Shown: piece after piece, positions 7,324-44,340 of the stretch
Layout of the letters: every line of letters starts with the position of its first letter
How positions within the stretch are numbered: position 1 is the first letter of the stretch
Assembly (NCBI GenBank): GCA_903884005.1
Contig: CAISDA010000040.1
Span: 1,539 to 65,538 of the forward strand
Origin: an uncultured Ignavibacteriota bacterium
GTDB taxonomy: Bacteria > Bacteroidota > Ignavibacteria > UBA10030 > UBA8401
DNA: 64,000 bases
Direction: 5' to 3'
Program-made: the position numbers and the translations under genes
Notes under the pieces: generated by a model
Seen by the model: only the letters and a program-made list of their open reading frames with translations
Databases searched by the model: none
Told to the model about the DNA's origin: nothing

Positions 7324-8658
7324 ATGACGAATGCACAGCGAATCACGACGATCATCGTCGGTGCCGCAGGCCGCGATTTTCATAATTTCAATATGATCTA
7401 TCGGGGCAATGAAGCATATGATGTCGTCGCCTTTACGGCCGCGCAGATTCCGAATATTGCAGGCAGAAAATATCCCGCTTCGCTGGCCGGCTCGCTGTAT
7501 CCCTCCGGCATCCCGATCTTCGAGGAACGCGACCTCGAAAAGCTCATCGCAAAATTCAACGTGGAAGAGGTCGTCTTCTCGTACAGCGATGTCACCTATA
7601 ACCACGTCATGAGCATCGGCTCGCGGGTGACGGCGGCCGGCGCGCATTTCAAGCTGCTGAGCGCCGCTCAGACCATGATCAAAAGCACCAAGCCCGTCGT
7701 GTCTGTGTGCGCCGTGCGCACAGGCAGCGGTAAAAGCCAGACAACACGCCGTGTCTCCGCGATCCTGCAGAACCTGGGATACAGTGTGGCGGCAGTGCGT
7801 CATCCGATGCCGTACGGAGACCTTGAAAAACAAAAAGTGCAGCGCTATGCCACACTCGGTGATCTGAAGAAGCACAAATGCACGATCGAGGAGATGGAAG
7901 AGTACGAGCCGCACATTGTGAGCGGCACCATCATCTATGCCGGCGTCGATTACGCGGCGATCCTGGAGCAGGCGGAGAAGGATGCCGACGTGATCATCTG
8001 GGACGGGGGGAATAACGATCTGCCGTTCTATGCGCCCGACCTTCATATCGTCGTAGCCGATCCGCTTCGCACGGGCGACGAGTTGAAATATTTTCCGAGC
8101 GAGGCGAACCTCCGGCTCGCCGATGTTGTCATCATCAACAAGATCGATTCGGCCCTGCCGGACAATGTGACGAAATTGCGCGCCAACATACGCAGCGTCA
8201 ACACAACGGCGAAGATCATCGATGCCGCATCGCCGATCGCGCTCGAGGCGAGCCACACGATCGCCGGCAAGCGCGTGCTGGTGATAGAGGACGGGCCGAC
8301 CTTGACGCACGGTGAAATGAAATTCGGCGCAGGCACAGTCGCCGCGCTTAAATTCGGCGCCGGCGAGATCGTCGATCCGCGTCCGTACGTGAGCGGCGAG
8401 ATGAAGAAAACCTATGAGACCTATCCGAAGATCGGCGTGCTGCTGCCGGCCATGGGGTACAGCAACAAGCAGATCAAAGACCTTGAAGCAACGGTGAACC
8501 GCGTGCCCTGCGATGTTGTCATTATCGGCACGCCGATCGATCTCAGCCGCATCATCAAGATCACGAAACCGGCGCTTCGCGTTACGTACGACCTTCAGGA
8601 GATAGGCCAGCCCGACCTGCTGGCTGTGCTCAGCGACTTCGCCAGAAAAATACACTAA
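7324..8658 (+). CDS. P-loop NTPase, cyclic 2,3-diphosphoglycerate synthetase (cPGS)-like family, function unknown
   Basis: Walker A (VCAVRTGSGKSQTT) and Walker B-like (DVIIWDGG), 444 aa, AGGAG RBS. Operonic with the genes at 3140-7260. Family assignment is from memory of the domain architecture, not a search. Confidence 0.5.
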   Translation: MTNAQRITTIIVGAAGRDFHNFNMIYRGNEAYDVVAFTAAQIPNIAGRKYPASLAGSLYPSGIPIFEERDLEKLIAKFNVEEVVFSYSDVTYNHVMSIGSRVTAAGAHFKLLSAAQTMIKSTKPVVSVCAVRTGSGKSQTTRRVSAILQNLGYSVAAVRHPMPYGDLEKQKVQRYATLGDLKKHKCTIEEMEEYEPHIVSGTIIYAGVDYAAILEQAEKDADVIIWDGGNNDLPFYAPDLHIVVADPLRTGDELKYFPSEANLRLADVVIINKIDSALPDNVTKLRANIRSVNTTAKIIDAASPIALEASHTIAGKRVLVIEDGPTLTHGEMKFGAGTVAALKFGAGEIVDPRPYVSGEMKKTYETYPKIGVLLPAMGYSNKQIKDLEATVNRVPCDVVIIGTPIDLSRIIKITKPALRVTYDLQEIGQPDLLAVLSDFARKIH

Positions 8659-8661
8659 CGC

Positions 8662-9258
8662 ATGCCAAAACTCCCGGACACGATCATTTTAGCCTCACGG
8701 TCGCCGAGGCGGGCGCAGCTGCTGCGCCAGATCGGCGTCGCATTTGAAACATCGGTATGCGATATCGATGAACTCTTCGACCCCGCGATGACACCCGTAG
8801 AAAATGCGCGGGCGCTTTCCTATATGAAGGCGGCAGATGTCGCCAGCCGCTACAGGCGGGGTATCGTGCTCGGATCCGATACGATCGTCGTGCTGGACGG
8901 CATGCTGCTGGGAAAGCCCGTGTCGGAGGAGGATGCCCGGCGCATGCTGCGCACGCTCAGCGGCAGAACGCACACCGTCGTTACCGGATTTGCGCTTGTT
9001 GATGCGGAGTCAAAAAAATCATATATTGATTGCGAACAGACCGATGTTACATTCCGGTCGCTTGACGACGACGAGATCGCCGCATATGTTGCCGCAGGGT
9101 CGCCCATGGATAAAGCGGGGGCGTACGGCATCCAGGACGATTTCGGCGCCGTATTCGTCGAACGCATCGCGGGTGATTACTACACCGTGGTCGGCCTGCC
9201 ATTATCGAAAGTTTACTGTGCGTTACAGCAGTTCATGACATTACTACAAAAAGGATAA
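8662..9258 (+). CDS. maf: Maf-like nucleoside triphosphate pyrophosphatase
   Basis: N-terminus IILASRSPRRAQLL and overall Maf/Ham1 signature; 198 aa. Confidence 0.9.
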   Translation: MPKLPDTIILASRSPRRAQLLRQIGVAFETSVCDIDELFDPAMTPVENARALSYMKAADVASRYRRGIVLGSDTIVVLDGMLLGKPVSEEDARRMLRTLSGRTHTVVTGFALVDAESKKSYIDCEQTDVTFRSLDDDEIAAYVAAGSPMDKAGAYGIQDDFGAVFVERIAGDYYTVVGLPLSKVYCALQQFMTLLQKG

Positions 9259-9261
9259 GCA

Positions 9262-9663
9262 ATGGAGAAAAAAATTCGAATATTGATCGCGAAGGCCGGT
9301 TTGGACGGCCACGATCGCGGTGCGAAAGTGATCGCGGCGGCACTGCGCGATGCAGGCATGGAAGTGATTTATACCGGATTGCGCAAGTCTCCGGAAATGA
9401 TCGTTGAATCCGCGCTGCAGGAAGATGTGGACGGGATAGGGATCAGTTCTCTCAGCGGCGCCCATATGACCATCTTCCCGAAGGTTGTTGCGCTCATGAA
9501 GGAAAAGGGGATCAGCGACATCATTCTCTTCGGCGGGGGAATCATTCCTCAGGCGGACATTGACGCATTGAAGGCGCTCGGCGTGGGCGAATTATTCACG
9601 CCCGGCACGCCGACGCAAGCCATCGTCGAGTACCTCACGACGGCCTGCGGCGTCACCACGTAA
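9262..9663 (+). CDS. Stand-alone cobalamin (B12)-binding domain protein (methylmalonyl-CoA mutase C-terminal-domain-like)
   Basis: DxHxxG B12-binding motif ([11 protein letters not shown]), Rossmann-like fold, 133 aa. Confidence 0.8.
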
Positions 9664-9821: not shown

Positions 9822-12170
9822 TTATTGTGATTCGTCCAATTCAATGGGCGCATGGCCCGGGAGCGTTTCGGCCGGAGTGTCTGTGCGCGTGTTCCGGATG
9901 CGGATGCCCGACGCATCGAATCCGAACAGATCGTCGCTGGTAAAGATCTGCTGAAAGTCCTTCTCCGCAAAGAAGACGCGGAATTTATCCGAAAGCTCAT
10001 CGAGGCGTTTCAGGTAAAAGCCGGTGTTCTCGTCGGGAAAATTTTCGTCCCACAGGAATGCTTCCTTGACGTTCCTGAAGCCGGTGATCGAGGCGTCCTT
10101 TCCCGTGAAGTAATAGGCGACCCGTTCGCCGAGCCTCACGGGGCGTTTCGACTGAATGACCGCTTCATAGACCGCCGCCCGGTTGCGCCTTCCCGTCCTG
10201 ACTCCGTCTTCATAGTCTTCCAGCGTCTCTTTGATCGTGTCGGTCCGTGTAAAGTCTGCTGCAGTCATTTCGTGGAAACGGAGCGAGTGGACGAGCTCGA
10301 TATAAAACCGGTGCATGTCGCCGAATTGCTCATTCAACAAGCATTCGATGCACTGCCGGAGGAATACCCGCCCGAAGCGTTCGATATTCCTGGACAGGAG
10401 GGACGAGCCCTTGATCGTCACCTTGTTGCGGTGGTCGAGCAGCGCGTAGTTCTTTTTTTTGTAACTGAGCATCTTCGTATACCTGCCGCTGAATCCGAGC
10501 GTGATGCCGTCGGGAAGAAGTGATGAAAGCCGGCCGACGAACTCCCGTTCCGCATGGGTGCCCGCGACATTATCGGGCGGAATACAATAGAGCCCGTCTG
10601 TGTCCACCTCTATGACGGTGCCGTTGTTCAACGTGATATCGTGGATAAGCCGGCGCAGCAGTTCCTGGCCCGATGTGGTGACTTCATCGGCCCGGTCATA
10701 GTCGTTGAACAGCGCCCTTGAATATCCCAGGTATCCGTAAAATGAATTGATCAGCACTTTGAGCGATGACTGCAGCGCGTCGGTTTGCGCGAGCGCGGAT
10801 GCATCGGTCAGCGTCTGGAGTTCCCGTTTCGCCTCGAGCCGTTTCGTTGTGAGAAACCGGAGCGCGGTCGTGAACACATCCAGTGCATCGGTGGCGGGCC
10901 TGATGCCGCGGGTCAGCATGAGAGAGGGGTACAGGGAATCGACATCCGCGTGGACGATCGGCCCGAATACGCCGGTGGCGAAGATATCGGTGTAGCCGCC
11001 CGATGTCTGGAAGCCCTGCTGTGGCTTCGGAAGAGAATGGCGCTGGCGGATGTACGCACGCAGAAAGATCGCTTCGATCTTTGCGGCGGAGCCGAGTTTT
11101 GCCAGCGTTCCGAAATTGAACGGGAGCATCTGCGCCAGGTAGAAGGCCGACCCGAGCAGCGTGTCGCTGACGGCTCGCGTGTCTCTCGCATTCTCCGCCG
11201 CATGCCGGTGGAGAGCACCGGGATCGTGTTCCCACGACCAGGAGACCTTGTCGTCGGGAATGTACTCGCGTCCGGCTGCGGCAGCCCCGAAAAATTGCGC
11301 CGCGTAGTGCAGGCTGTAGCTCTCCATCGAGTGCCGGGATGCGTCGTACGACTGCAAGAGCAACCATGTGTCTATGATGTGCCGGCCGGCGATCTCGAAA
11401 CTCGTGTATTCCACGGTGGTCTCGGCAAACATTGTCCGTGTTGAATGCGTGGAGGGGACCGTTCCGTCGCGCCCCAGGGCGCATTCGATCGAGTGCAGTT
11501 CGCAGCGTTTCATGATGTAGGGCAGCACGGCCGAATAGCAATGATGCGCCTCGATGACGTCGGGATCCTTCTCGCGGACGAGTGCGATGAATTCGGCAAG
11601 GAGTTTTTGTTCGCCGCCGCGCCTGTTTCCCAGCACCTTCTCCCAACCGCGGTTGTCCGACAGCGCGATCACGACGATGCTGTCGTCGAGGCGCTCGGCA
11701 TTGCTCGTGCGGTGCGCCTTCGAGTACGTCTCGATGTCGATCTGCATGCGGTACAGGTCGCCGGCCTCCATCCCCTTGAAGAGCGTCTTGCCCGACTGGA
11801 GCAGGTATTGCGTCGTCATGTCCGGACGGAAGAATATGTGTTCCGTGTCCAGGTACGATGTGACAGGCGTTTGGTAATATGCGCTGATTTTGCGCAGGGC
11901 GAATTGCACCGCTTCCCACGCATCGAAGGAGGATTGAAACGCGCACAGGTACTGATAAAAATTCGTGCCGTCGAGTTTCTTCAGCCAGAATTTTTTGGGA
12001 AAGCCGTCCATGAACCGCGAATCGGACAGGTGGAAGAAGGGGAAAAATTCGACATCACTCGATTCCACGGCGGCGCTTGTCCGCTTGTACACGCGGATCG
12101 ACGAGCCTCCCACCGGGTGGAGAGCGACGATGTGTGTCTCATCGTTATGTCCGAAGAGCAGTGAATCCAT
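9822..12170 (-). CDS. polB: Family B DNA polymerase (E. coli Pol II-like)
   Basis: Exo I DIETYS; motif A DVDSLYPSLM; motif B KVLINSFYGYLG; motif C VIEVDTDGLY; KKRY-like SYKKKNYALL. Length 782 aa (E. coli Pol II is 783 aa) with co-linear DPDVI and LGRD regions. Confidence 0.85.
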   Translation of the reverse strand: MDSLLFGHNDETHIVALHPVGGSSIRVYKRTSAAVESSDVEFFPFFHLSDSRFMDGFPKKFWLKKLDGTNFYQYLCAFQSSFDAWEAVQFALRKISAYYQTPVTSYLDTEHIFFRPDMTTQYLLQSGKTLFKGMEAGDLYRMQIDIETYSKAHRTSNAERLDDSIVVIALSDNRGWEKVLGNRRGGEQKLLAEFIALVREKDPDVIEAHHCYSAVLPYIMKRCELHSIECALGRDGTVPSTHSTRTMFAETTVEYTSFEIAGRHIIDTWLLLQSYDASRHSMESYSLHYAAQFFGAAAAGREYIPDDKVSWSWEHDPGALHRHAAENARDTRAVSDTLLGSAFYLAQMLPFNFGTLAKLGSAAKIEAIFLRAYIRQRHSLPKPQQGFQTSGGYTDIFATGVFGPIVHADVDSLYPSLMLTRGIRPATDALDVFTTALRFLTTKRLEAKRELQTLTDASALAQTDALQSSLKVLINSFYGYLGYSRALFNDYDRADEVTTSGQELLRRLIHDITLNNGTVIEVDTDGLYCIPPDNVAGTHAEREFVGRLSSLLPDGITLGFSGRYTKMLSYKKKNYALLDHRNKVTIKGSSLLSRNIERFGRVFLRQCIECLLNEQFGDMHRFYIELVHSLRFHEMTAADFTRTDTIKETLEDYEDGVRTGRRNRAAVYEAVIQSKRPVRLGERVAYYFTGKDASITGFRNVKEAFLWDENFPDENTGFYLKRLDELSDKFRVFFAEKDFQQIFTSDDLFGFDASGIRIRNTRTDTPAETLPGHAPIELDESQ

Positions 12171-12359
12171 GCACTAATATATACGCCAGCGGGATAAAAG
12201 CAAAAAATAATGAAGGGGAACGACATCGTATCGTGCGGCCTGCCTCAGCCGCTTTGCTCCGAAGGAAATGACAGTGAATGAGAACTGATCGCTTGTGGCC
12301 GGGCGGTTTAAAACACAACACGTCCGGAGCGTTGCCCGGACGTGTTGTGACATGTACAG

Positions 12360-12446
12360 CGGAGAGGGTGGGATTCGAACCCACGGAACGCTTTCACGTT
12401 CACACACTTTCCAGGCGTGCCAGTTCAACCACTCCTGCACCTCTCC
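12360..12446 (-). tRNA. tRNA-Ser (anticodon GGA), class II
   Basis: On the minus strand the sequence reads GGAGAGG...CCTCTCC+G. Anticodon arm is CACGC-CTGGAAA-GTGTG, with a long variable arm and T-arm CGTGG-GTTCGAAT-CCCAC. Confidence 0.85.
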
Positions 12447-12491
12447 GGGATAAAACGGATGTGTGTACACCTGCCTTGCTTTATTTCCTAG

Positions 12492-12578
12492 CGGAGAGGG
12501 AGAGATTCGAACTCTCGATACCCTTACGAGTACACTAGTTTTCGAGACTAGCTCTTTCAACCACTCAGACACCTCTCC
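12492..12578 (-). tRNA. tRNA-Ser (anticodon CGA), class II
   Basis: Minus-strand sequence GGAGAGGTGTCTGAGTGGTTGAAAGAGCTAGTCTCGAAAACTAG...GAGAGTTCGAATCTCTCCCTCTCCG; anticodon loop CTCGAAA. Confidence 0.85.
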
Positions 12579-43718: not shown

Positions 43719-43837
43719 CTTCATCTGCCGGCGCCTGCCCTCGTTGGCATAGCGCCCCAAACACAGAATTAATTCATTCATCTCTCATACTCACGCTGAC
43801 GTCACGGCTATCCACACCGGCAGACGGTGTGCGCACG

Positions 43838-44340
43838 TCAGGCAATCGCGTTAGTTGCATTTGTCAATTAAGGAGGAAAGTCCGAACTCTCTTCTCTTCT
43901 TTCACAAGAAGACAAGGGGCACGGTGCCGGATAACATCCGGGGGGAGCGATCCTACGGAAAGTGTCACAGAAAATATACCGTCCCGTCTGTACGACGGGA
44001 TAAGGGTGAAATGGTGCGTCCTGCAATCAAGCGGGATTAAAGTAAGAGCGCACCGCGTTTCCAGCAATGGAAACGGCATGACAAACCCCACCGAGAGCAA
44101 GACCATGTAGGTTCCGTTGTTCTCCCCGCGTTGAAAGCGCGGGAGAACGAAGAGATGCCCACTCAACGCTGTGCTCGACGCGCGGTGACGGAACGGGTAG
44201 GTCGCTTGAACCGCGCAGCAATGCGTCGGTCAGAGAAATGATTGCCTCTTCCCCCTTCCGCTGTGTGTCTATGGCGGTTGTAGGAACAGACAGAATTCGG
44301 CTTATCGACGCGCCGCTTCGGCTCGCCGGTCTGGAATGCC
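43838..44340 (+). ncRNA. rnpB: RNase P RNA (bacterial type A); boundaries approximate (+/- 30 nt)
   Basis: Recalled type A conserved blocks: AGGAGGAAAGTCCG (P4 5' strand); GGGCACGGTGCCGG and ATAACATCCGGGGGG; AGGGTGAAATGGTGCG...GTAAGAGCGCACC; ACAAACCCCACCGAGAGCAAG; ACAGAATTCGGCTTAT (P4 3' strand). Confidence 0.8.

Follow-up and report, generated by a model that had tools for sequence, protein, structure and literature searches.

A family-B DNA polymerase assigned to bacterial group G3 with a clade-specific loss of exonuclease catalytic residues at a vertically inherited locus

Background

Among the family-B DNA polymerases of bacteria, group G3 is the second largest. It has been reported in eight phyla (PMC7544198, PMC12926913) and in all Chlorobi (PMC12926913). 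For G3 as a whole an ancient transfer from viruses to bacteria has been proposed, and Salinibacter, Nostoc and crAss-like phages are listed with G3 and its clade (PMC7544198). A Glu preceding the DTD of motif C is regarded as the signature of G3 and of Pol-epsilon-N (Kazlauskas et al. 2020, PMC7544198). No G3 PolB has been experimentally characterised, and the exonuclease active site is described as conserved in the group (PMC12926913), which published surveys call high-fidelity.

Several other systems invite comparison with the polymerase reported here. E. coli Pol II, of group G1, is likewise an accessory family-B enzyme; its length is about 780 aa, it shares motifs A, B, C and KxY and it has a clamp motif at the C-terminus, but it belongs to another clade and is an active DEDDy proofreader. 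Archaeal PolB2 and bacterial G2, which include the translesion-synthesis extender Sulfolobus Dpo2, are likewise B-family polymerases with an inactivated exonuclease domain, and their role is thought to be error-prone synthesis; G2/B2 enzymes lack a conserved Exo I and have no Exo III, and their motif C contains only one Asp (PMC7544198); the G2/B2 clade is B1-3-like whereas that of our polymerase is EpsilonN-like. Actinobacterial PolA2/APEX and eukaryotic Pol zeta and Pol alpha also retain a 3'-5' exonuclease domain that is vestigial and without catalytic activity, and PolA2 has a clamp-binding motif too. They follow the same pattern, with proofreading lost in an accessory polymerase, but they come from other families or clades and offer an analogy only.

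In this study we analyse polB, a gene for a family-B polymerase in a 64-kb window, by which we mean the whole stretch of DNA that was analysed. Our reading, which we hold to be likely, is that of a chromosomal, vertically inherited G3 PolB whose proofreading site has decayed in a small lineage with the polymerase core left intact, so that the protein is most likely a proofreading-deficient accessory polymerase.

Results

The gene product and its group

The gene polB (9822..12170, minus strand) is an open reading frame with an ATG start, and its 782-aa product is laid out as an N-terminal domain, a vestigial exonuclease domain and a polymerase domain. Pfam recognises both DNA_pol_B (PF00136; 76 bits against a cut-off of 23, 3e-21) and DNA_pol_B_exo1 (PF03104; 34.4 bits against a cut-off of 23, 2e-8). 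AlphaFold predicts a full PolB fold with a pLDDT of 87.8, and in Foldseek the predicted structure matches the 9N and KOD polymerases at TM 0.74-0.77 and E 4e-40. With these Pfam domains, the PolB fold and motifs A, B, C and KxY, the product is a family-B DNA polymerase. A second copy of PolB turned up neither in the 64-kb window nor in the relatives' loci examined. The relatives carry the labels Bacteroidota or Ignavibacteriales, and it is these labels and a T9SS-tail protein that suggest the taxon.

An earlier note on this DNA had called the polymerase Pol II-like, a label that does not hold. The NCBIfam equivalog of E. coli Pol II (NF004421) gives 79 bits, far short of its cut-off of 570, the PDB matches reach 9e-36 for archaeal B3 enzymes versus 2e-5 for Pol II structures, and the window PolB shows EAHH in the position of the Pol II residues IGWN, which contain the 'GWN' Exo II signature of G1. 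A Pol II orthologue of group G1 was accordingly rejected on the equivalog score and the missing signature. An inactivated PolB of the PolB2/G2 kind was rejected as well, given that Exo I is kept, the helix of Exo III is present, the DTD is intact and the best relatives are G3.

By its sequence the product is placed in bacterial PolB group G3 (Pol-epsilon-N-like), a placement based on the signature Glu and on matches to named G3 members. Its motif C reads IEVDTDG, with E521 conserved family-wide. Salinibacter phage PolBs align with 98% of its length at 34% identity (E 1e-129), the other phage matches come only from Nostoc and crAss-like phages, and two loci from Chlorobi metagenome-assembled genomes (L010 and L011) encode full-length PolB relatives at 42-43% identity. 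With G3 the window PolB thus shares the N-terminal/Exo/Pol architecture, the Glu of motif C and a C-terminal xxxLF, as well as full-length homology to the Chlorobi and the Salinibacter and Nostoc phage PolBs. The difference lies in the exonuclease: surveys of complete genomes find conserved exonuclease and polymerase sites in G3, whereas the conserved exonuclease site is absent here, three of its five residues being replaced (D215V, Y323H and D327N). Since that site is a described property of G3 and not its phylogenetic definition, we file the protein as a G3 PolB with a derived, apparently inactivated exonuclease site. The statement in the earlier note that PolB is sporadic outside Proteobacteria is only roughly right and has to be qualified by the eight phyla from which G3 is reported and by its reported presence throughout the Chlorobi.

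Loss of exonuclease catalytic residues

The exonuclease residues were read from two independent alignments that agree with each other, one made with HMMER against PDB and the other with MAFFT on a set of the window PolB, E. coli Pol II, a KOD fragment and 40 relatives. Exo I (IDIETY, residues 144-149; 11724..11741, on the minus strand like all polB motifs below) keeps D145 and E147, as had been noticed earlier from its DIETY. Exo II (HHCYSAVLPY, residues 209-218; 11517..11546) is degenerate with regard to the family consensus HNIFNFDLPY: N210 is changed to H, F214 to A and the catalytic D215 to V, and its HCYSAV is the counterpart of NVVQFD in E. coli Pol II and of NGDNFD in KOD. Exo III (HAAENARDT, residues 323-331; 11178..11204; family consensus YALDDVRET) is degenerate too, with Y323 changed to H and D327 to N, and it sits inside a helix predicted by AlphaFold at residues 317-338. 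Three of the five DEDDy residues are therefore replaced (V215, H323 and N327), D145 and E147 alone remain, and the full set that marks an active DEDDy proofreader is not there. The earlier suspicion that Exo II is non-canonical and has lost its catalytic Asp is borne out by both alignments, and the doubt then left over Exo III is settled by alignment, for both its Tyr and its Asp are replaced (YALDD to HAAEN).

The canonical D-E/N-F-D/Y-D exonuclease residues occur in 139 of 153 aligned family members. Among these 153 the loss is limited to the eight closest protein clusters, P0001-P0008, which form a clade with 100% bootstrap and comprise the branch of the window PolB (P0001-5) and a sister branch (P0006-8). 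The eight clusters come from NCBI, ENA, JGI and Logan assemblies, all of them metagenomes, and no additional member of the clade was found among 5.8 billion proteins. As the same kind of loss is met in eight independent clusters, it is not due to chance or sequencing error; the exonuclease catalytic residues have been lost, and the loss is clade-specific. That the product is proofreading-deficient, once raised as a possibility, is a well-founded prediction from the residues of Exo II and Exo III.

Polymerase core, C-terminal motif and selection

Motifs A, B, C and KxY, reported before as kept, were all located intact by alignment in the 782-aa frame. Motif A (DVDSLYPS, residues 409-416; 10923..10946) has L413, Y414, P415 and S416 invariant in alignment A1; motif B (KVLINSFYGYLG, residues 471-482; 10725..10760) contains the core KVLINSFYG, in the pattern KxxxNSxYG; motif C (EVDTDG, residues 521-526; 10593..10610) includes the G3/Pol-epsilon-N signature at E521 (PMC7544198); and the KxY motif is KKKNY (residues 571-575; 10446..10460). 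Every polymerase catalytic residue is kept throughout the window branch P0001-5, and DNA-synthesis activity is predicted to be retained.

Towards the C-terminus, conservation brings out DDLFGF (residues 746-751; 9918..9935) as a candidate beta-clamp or partner-binding motif. Its L748, F749 and F751 are invariant among 69 sequences, and the segment from S745 through DDLF to residue 749 is similar to QxxLF, the beta-clamp-binding consensus (PMC12926913), but without the Gln. The SDDLF region is modelled by AlphaFold with fairly high confidence and not as a disordered tail. The product may be tethered to the clamp through its C-terminal SDDLFGF.

The gene is functional and under purifying selection, with dN/dS of 0.05-0.10. 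We rely mainly on the unsaturated pair L052/L053, because dS is saturated in more distant pairs and their dN/dS is unusable; this pair gives 0.052 for polB (0.073 for the exonuclease domain and 0.035 for the palm), and pairs within the window branch give 0.08-0.10. Palm and fingers are the slowest-evolving part of PolB (dN/dS 0.035-0.07), and the exonuclease domain diverges about 1.8 times faster than they do, against a ratio of about 1.0 in the exo-intact clades.

Related proteins with eroded sites offer another view of what is being selected. In the sister branch P0006-8, the dead exonuclease site is accompanied by changes in motif A (D to E), motif B (K to R or K to T) and motif C (DTD to DAD or DAE). 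Two further clusters, P0159 and P0305, are positional orthologues (polB / B12 / Maf) that have neither exonuclease nor polymerase catalytic residues, yet they are full-length and still constrained (dN 0.21 at saturated dS, dN/dS of about 0.07 in the polymerase region) and keep SDDLFGF; indeed, relatives that are catalytically dead still retain DDLFGF. A wider survey turned up many related G3-type proteins whose exonuclease site, polymerase site or both are eroded. Among them are positional orthologues at the polB locus, which have repeatedly lost the exonuclease site and in some lines the polymerase site as well, and both sites were missing in 26 of the 112 representatives at 50% identity, which suggests that such erosion is common among metagenomic G3-type proteins. 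Taken together, the changes in P0006-8 and the constraint on P0159 and P0305 imply that catalysis may not be what selection preserves in the wider lineage. The protein could then be a non-catalytic scaffold or partner-binding factor, for example via DDLFGF, with both catalytic sites dispensable in the lineage and the window PolB at an earlier stage of erosion. We judge this unlikely, for all polymerase catalytic residues are conserved in P0001-5 and it is the palm and fingers that evolve slowest, as an active polymerase site would show.

A proofreading-deficient polymerase remains our preferred reading of the window branch, and it has to be weighed against the idea that proofreading persists there through a non-canonical site. 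Exo I is kept in all five window-branch clusters, by which residual or altered activity is conceivable; D145 and E147 might act together with H210 and H323 in a DEDDh-like manner, the change of Tyr to His in Exo III bears a superficial resemblance to DEDDh, and the exonuclease domain is under purifying selection (dN/dS 0.07-0.2). However, D215V and D327N remove half of the four metal-binding carboxylates and put no acidic residue in their place, and mutagenesis of DEDD polymerases has established that removing the Asp of either Exo II or Exo III cuts activity by orders of magnitude. The spacing is H-x3-N versus H-x4-D in DEDDh enzymes, the clade conserves neither of the two histidines, residue 323 being Phe in P0006-8 and residue 210 Asn in P0005-8, and the domain evolves 1.8 times faster than the palm. 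A DEDDh-type rescue by the new histidines was rejected for its wrong spacing and its lack of conservation within the clade, and persistence of proofreading in this form strikes us as very improbable.

Locus and inheritance

Two tRNA-Ser genes lie directly upstream of polB on the same minus strand, one with anticodon GGA (12359..12446) and one with CGA (12491..12578); ARAGORN and Rfam confirm both, and with them the adjacency that the earlier note had described. At the other end, a B12-binding-domain gene identified by Pfam (9262..9663, plus strand), convergent with polB, and maf (8662..9258, plus strand; Pfam and synteny) serve as conserved synteny markers. The order of two tRNA-Ser genes, polB, B12-binding gene and maf recurs in relatives, with infB-nusA-rimP upstream, and reaches as far as relatives at about 44-60% PolB identity. 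The shared locus spans relatives of 44-84% PolB identity, and the B12-binding gene adjoins polB in L001-L008, L012, L041, L051-53 and L057-61.

The earlier note, which called tRNA genes classic integration hotspots, had suggested that the Pol II-like polymerase may be horizontally acquired; the reading weighed here is a recent acquisition by integration beside the tRNA genes. Besides the adjacency itself, the ancient viral entry proposed for G3 (PMC7544198) and the presence of homologues of the window PolB on Deinococcus megaplasmids and in phages speak for such a history, but we give it only the slightest credence. In relatives with 44-84% PolB identity the orthologues share this location and its flanking genes, the very observation that the earlier note had itself held to tell against acquisition. 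The comparison with neighbouring genes yields no foreign signal, since the GC content of polB is 0.577 versus 0.558+/-0.027, its codon-usage distance is 0.085 versus 0.109+/-0.028 and its GC3 also matches. No integrase or mobile genes were seen near polB, where the neighbours are housekeeping genes, and no att-like repeats were found flanking it, the only repeat being the tRNA pair itself; in this the first description was correct. What is found at the tRNA genes is therefore a gene of native composition at a conserved locus, with none of the integrase or repeats of an integrated mobile element, and its product is not a Pol II orthologue. Even the direct adjacency has another source: in the sister clade a TonB-dependent receptor gene and a 285-aa ORF stand between the tRNAs and polB, and polB adjoins the tRNAs here because these two unrelated genes are missing. 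Taken as a whole, polB is vertically inherited.

This 285-aa ORF, whose place is directly before polB in the sister clade with an intact exonuclease site, was also weighed as a possible partner but discarded: Pfam does not recognise it, and it is confined to that clade, where it accompanies the TonB-dependent receptor in what looks like lineage-specific synteny.

Upstream elements and transcription

After tRNA-Ser(GGA), folding locates an intrinsic terminator (12310..12349, minus strand) with a 15-bp stem followed by UUUU. The hairpin has an energy of -29.5 kcal/mol (z = -4.6) and is kept in relatives despite differing stem sequences. It sets the tRNA unit apart from polB, which appears to be a transcription unit of its own. 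Alignment of orthologous upstream regions further reveals a promoter-like element (12176..12204, minus strand) made up of TTTG (12201-12204), about 19 nt and TATATT (12176-12181), with both boxes conserved in seven orthologous polB upstream regions; a scan for the sigma-70 consensus upstream of polB found nothing. The TATATT box ends 5 nt before the ATG of polB. This element suggests that polB has a promoter dedicated to it and that its mRNA is leaderless or nearly so.

That polB is a decaying pseudogene without function, as the lost catalytic residues and the accelerated substitution in the exonuclease domain might hint, is scarcely credible against a 782-codon frame intact in eight independent clusters, dN/dS of 0.05-0.10, invariant polymerase and C-terminal motifs and a conserved promoter-like element.

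Discussion

According to the reading that we favour, transcription of polB would start from a dedicated promoter right after the tRNA-Ser terminator. The 3'-5' proofreading site of its product has decayed by the changes D215 to V, Y323 to H and D327 to N, with only Exo I left, and the exonuclease domain would persist as a folded structural module next to an intact polymerase catalytic core. Possibly tethered via the invariant, QxxLF-like SDDLFGF at its C-terminus, where clamp binding is our supposition, PolB would work as a proofreading-deficient accessory polymerase in gap filling, repair or the extension step of lesion bypass. A role in translesion synthesis or restart, as the earlier note had proposed, is plausible by inference. 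What the analysis itself establishes is the family of the protein, the loss of exonuclease catalytic residues and its restriction to one clade, purifying selection and vertical descent; that the exonuclease is inactive, the polymerase active and the clamp bound, and what PolB does in the cell, we infer.

The novelty is modest: an exo-dead variant within G3 is new, and the enzyme family itself was already known. The effect on the field is incremental because exonuclease-dead polymerases of the B and A families are already known in other groups. It is doubtful that selection in the Bacteroidota/Ignavibacteriota-related lineage maintains G3 PolB as a non-catalytic, partner-binding protein and not for its catalysis; if it did, the lineage would offer a counterpart in bacteria to Pol epsilon, the relative of G3 in eukaryotes, whose non-catalytic role is essential, and the window PolB would represent an intermediate stage. 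Under the preferred reading of a proofreading-deficient polymerase, the polB locus would present a natural and long-maintained G3 lineage without a proofreading site, in a group described as proofreading. The natural pairs of exo-minus and exo-plus orthologues at one conserved locus could be used to study fidelity, lesion bypass and structural role.

Family assignment of the window polymerase

The polB gene of the window (9822-12170, minus strand) begins with ATG and encodes 782 aa, and its matches to DNA_pol_B (3.3e-21) and DNA_pol_B_exo1 (1.9e-8) both exceed the Pfam gathering score. An earlier note called the product Pol II-like, which could not be maintained: the NCBIfam Pol II equivalog gives 79 bits where the cut-off is 570, and in PDB archaeal B3 enzymes match at 9e-36 but Pol II at only 2e-5. 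Kazlauskas et al. defined a bacterial group G3 inside the Pol-epsilon-N-like clade, whose clearest synapomorphy is a Glu preceding DTD in motif C, and whose viral members come only from Salinibacter and Nostoc phages, with crAss-like phages in the same clade (PMC7544198). Judged from its sequence, the window protein is a G3 PolB on each count. Its motif C reads IEVDTDG with the signature residue E521; its phage relatives are confined to phages of Salinibacter (34% identity and 1e-129 at 98% coverage) and of Nostoc/Anabaena, and to crAssphage; and full-length relatives are carried by Chlorobi MAGs, G3 PolB having been found in every Chlorobi species in a 2026 survey (PMC12926913).

Two observations were made on these relatives. 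Full-length homologues on Deinococcus megaplasmids (plasmid matches H16-H25, 28-31% identity) are labelled only "3'-5' exonuclease" or "ribonuclease H-like", so these polymerases appear to be under-annotated. The last residues of the Chlorobi PolBs at L010:4226-6676 and L011:5962-8358 are EEEVPF and EDDIPF, similar to the acidic C-terminal tip of SSB (DDDIPF), whereas the window protein and its relatives have acidic IELDES/IEFDD tails.

Exonuclease and polymerase active sites

The active sites were aligned by HMMER to KOD polymerase and by MAFFT to 40 relatives together with a KOD fragment and E. coli Pol II, and the two alignments agree on the exonuclease residues. Exo I retains D145 and E147 (IDIET, reference FDIET). 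Exo II, which is NVVQFD in E. coli, NGDNFD in KOD and HNIFNFD in the family, reads HHCYSAV (N210H, F214A, D215V), which bears out the impression of the earlier note that its catalytic Asp is missing; Exo III, left unclear there, now resolves as HAAEN (Y323H, D327N) against YSMED in KOD and YALDD in the family. Of the five DEDDy residues, D215V, Y323H and D327N leave only two, and the site has lost two of its four metal-binding carboxylates. The polymerase motifs are intact (DVDSLYPS, KVLINSFYGYLG, EVDTDG and KKKNY), and the polymerase-core residues are invariant or nearly so among 69 relatives. A confident AlphaFold model built with the relatives' alignment as input (pLDDT 87.8, pTM 0.76) shows a well-folded exonuclease domain with the three Exo motifs on the expected strand and helices, and in Foldseek the model matches complete archaeal B3 polymerases at TM 0.74-0.77.

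Canonical D-E/N-F-D/Y-D residues occur in 139 of 153 aligned family members. The window protein and all seven nearest clusters (P0002-P0008, 62-84% identity) lack the Asp of Exo II and both Tyr and Asp of Exo III, and these eight clusters are monophyletic with 100% NJ bootstrap, grouping at 83% with an exonuclease-intact "Bacteroidota MAG" clade and the more distant P0159. A search of 5.8 billion proteins seeded with P0007 added no member to the exonuclease-dead clade. Loss of these catalytic exonuclease residues is clade-specific and old. One branch, P0006-P0008, which includes the genes at L002:6001-8343 (P0008) and L038:938-3286 (P0007), has in addition replaced the Glu of Exo I (E to Q) and carries polymerase substitutions in motifs A (D to E), B (K to R/T) and C (DTD to DAD/DAE), and is still constrained (dN/dS 0.14 for L002 against L038). 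All polymerase residues are kept in the window branch, P0001-P0005. The main rival reading, in which the conserved role of the window protein is non-catalytic, is accordingly given a small probability, and residual proofreading, despite the retained Exo I, is unlikely.

Genomic context and inheritance

Directly upstream of polB come two tRNA genes of its own strand, tRNA-Ser(GGA) (12359-12446) and tRNA-Ser(CGA) (12491-12578), followed by rimP, nusA and infB, while genes for a B12-binding-domain protein, Maf, a conserved 444-aa protein, an aminotransferase and OTCase are convergent with its 3' end. Together with pnp, mutS2, purL, bshC, recJ, RNase P RNA, argH and a T9SS-tail protein elsewhere, the flanking genes are housekeeping ones and the window is core chromosome of an FCB-group bacterium. 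The 444-aa protein (7324-8658, plus strand) has no Pfam match, is a "predicted GTPase" in one source, and stays in synteny with maf and the B12-binding gene throughout the close relatives. The bacterial class A RNase P RNA (43831-44320, plus strand) spans 490 nt against a 367-position model, which implies sizeable insertions.

In the exonuclease-dead clade, L001, L002 and L038 have tRNA-Ser(CGA), tRNA-Ser(GGA) and polB in the order and orientation of the window; L002 further shares infB-nusA-rimP upstream and the B12-binding gene and maf downstream, and, among close relatives, L051-L053 share the order downstream over up to 10 genes. The exonuclease-intact sister clade conserves polB, the B12-binding gene and maf, its tRNA-Ser pair lying 3-4 kb upstream beyond a TonB-dependent receptor and a conserved 285-aa ORF without Pfam match (L008:2779-5919; also L003, L004, L006, L007, L012 and L041); neither occupies this position in the exonuclease-dead clade, and no copy of either was found in the rest of the 64-kb window. 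The GC content of polB (0.577) matches that of its neighbours (0.558+/-0.027), as do GC3 and codon usage, and the only direct repeats nearby are the two tRNAs themselves. Acquisition at a tRNA hotspot, which the earlier note had considered in view of the adjacent tRNA genes, is therefore not supported, and recent horizontal transfer is unlikely. The independent metagenomic contigs L051, L052 and L053 of close relatives all break off at the tRNA-Ser genes, 120-320 bp upstream of polB; the tRNA pair is probably an assembly breakpoint.

Behind tRNA-Ser(GGA) there is a 15-bp hairpin followed by UUUU (-29.5 kcal/mol, z = -4.6), maintained in relatives despite differing stem sequences. Two boxes are conserved downstream of the hairpin, TTTG and, about 19 nt on, TATATT, which ends 5 nt before the polB ATG in the window and 5-7 nt before it in relatives. 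A sigma-70 scan gave nothing at this position; the boxes resemble a Bacteroidota-type promoter, from which we infer a leaderless or near-leaderless polB mRNA. Between terminator and boxes, about 75-95 nt (12205-12300) are inserted in the window relative to all six orthologous upstream regions, a lineage-specific addition.

Selection on polB

The least-diverged pair, L052 and L053 (dS 0.32), has a dN/dS of 0.052 over the whole gene, with 0.073 for the exonuclease domain and 0.035 for palm/fingers. Window-branch pairs give 0.08-0.10 overall, with the exonuclease domain roughly two-fold above the palm, and at the protein level that domain diverges 1.8 times as fast as palm/fingers in this branch, against a ratio of about 1.0 in exonuclease-intact clades. 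Such low values indicate a functional gene, so that a pseudogene, which the lost residues might suggest, is unlikely. Constraint on the retained exonuclease domain is relaxed but real, as would fit a structural remnant.

Recurrent erosion of active sites in the family

Published complete-genome surveys describe G3 active sites as fully conserved (PMC12926913). We searched 1.84 billion 50%-identity representatives and obtained 505 proteins at E<=1e-30. Among 112 full-length sequences from the best 150 (P0155-P0304), placed by a fast alignment whose calls are less certain for the most divergent proteins and whose flanking conserved blocks are clean for closer ones, both sites are intact in 59, the exonuclease alone is degenerate in 23, both are degenerate in 26, and the polymerase alone in 4 (e.g. 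P0167, P0172). Several relatives of 1000-1400 aa (P0158, P0163, P0176, P0192, P0203, P0204, P0218, P0227, P0236 and others) match the query in two stretches that break near residue 477 (motif B) or 525-535 (motif C), probably through intein insertions at classic PolB sites.

Two of the eroded proteins, from other lineages, occupy the polB / B12-binding / maf locus: P0157 (L057:9529-11886), in which the exonuclease site is dead but the polymerase site intact, and P0159 (L058:8031-10283), full-length and constrained with both sites dead and labelled a hypothetical protein of an Ignavibacteriales MAG by NCBI. In similarity to the window, their flanking genes equal those of the exonuclease-intact sister clade (B12-binding 78-81%, Maf 53-65%), yet their PolBs are only 44% identical to the window protein against 57-60% for that clade. 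The likewise full-length P0305 (L061:6001-8256) is 71% identical to P0159 (dN 0.21, dS saturated), with the same dead motifs and SDDLFGF kept. As these positional orthologues show, catalytic sites erode repeatedly in the lineage while the protein is retained.

Discussion

The best-supported reading is that the window protein would be a proofreading-deficient, polymerase-competent accessory polymerase, for which the established mutagenesis of DEDD polymerases provides the basis for predicting loss of exonuclease activity. Tethering may occur via the invariant SDDLF(G)F, a candidate that resembles the QxxLF clamp motif. As a proofreading-deficient accessory polymerase it would be analogous to PolB2/G2, PolA2/APEX and Pol zeta. 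What stands of the earlier interpretation is the predicted proofreading loss, not the Pol II-like family or the horizontal origin. G3 PolB was already known; new here is a clade, found only in metagenomes, whose exonuclease appears inactivated, and the active-site erosion seen across the family is somewhat more interesting than the single window gene.
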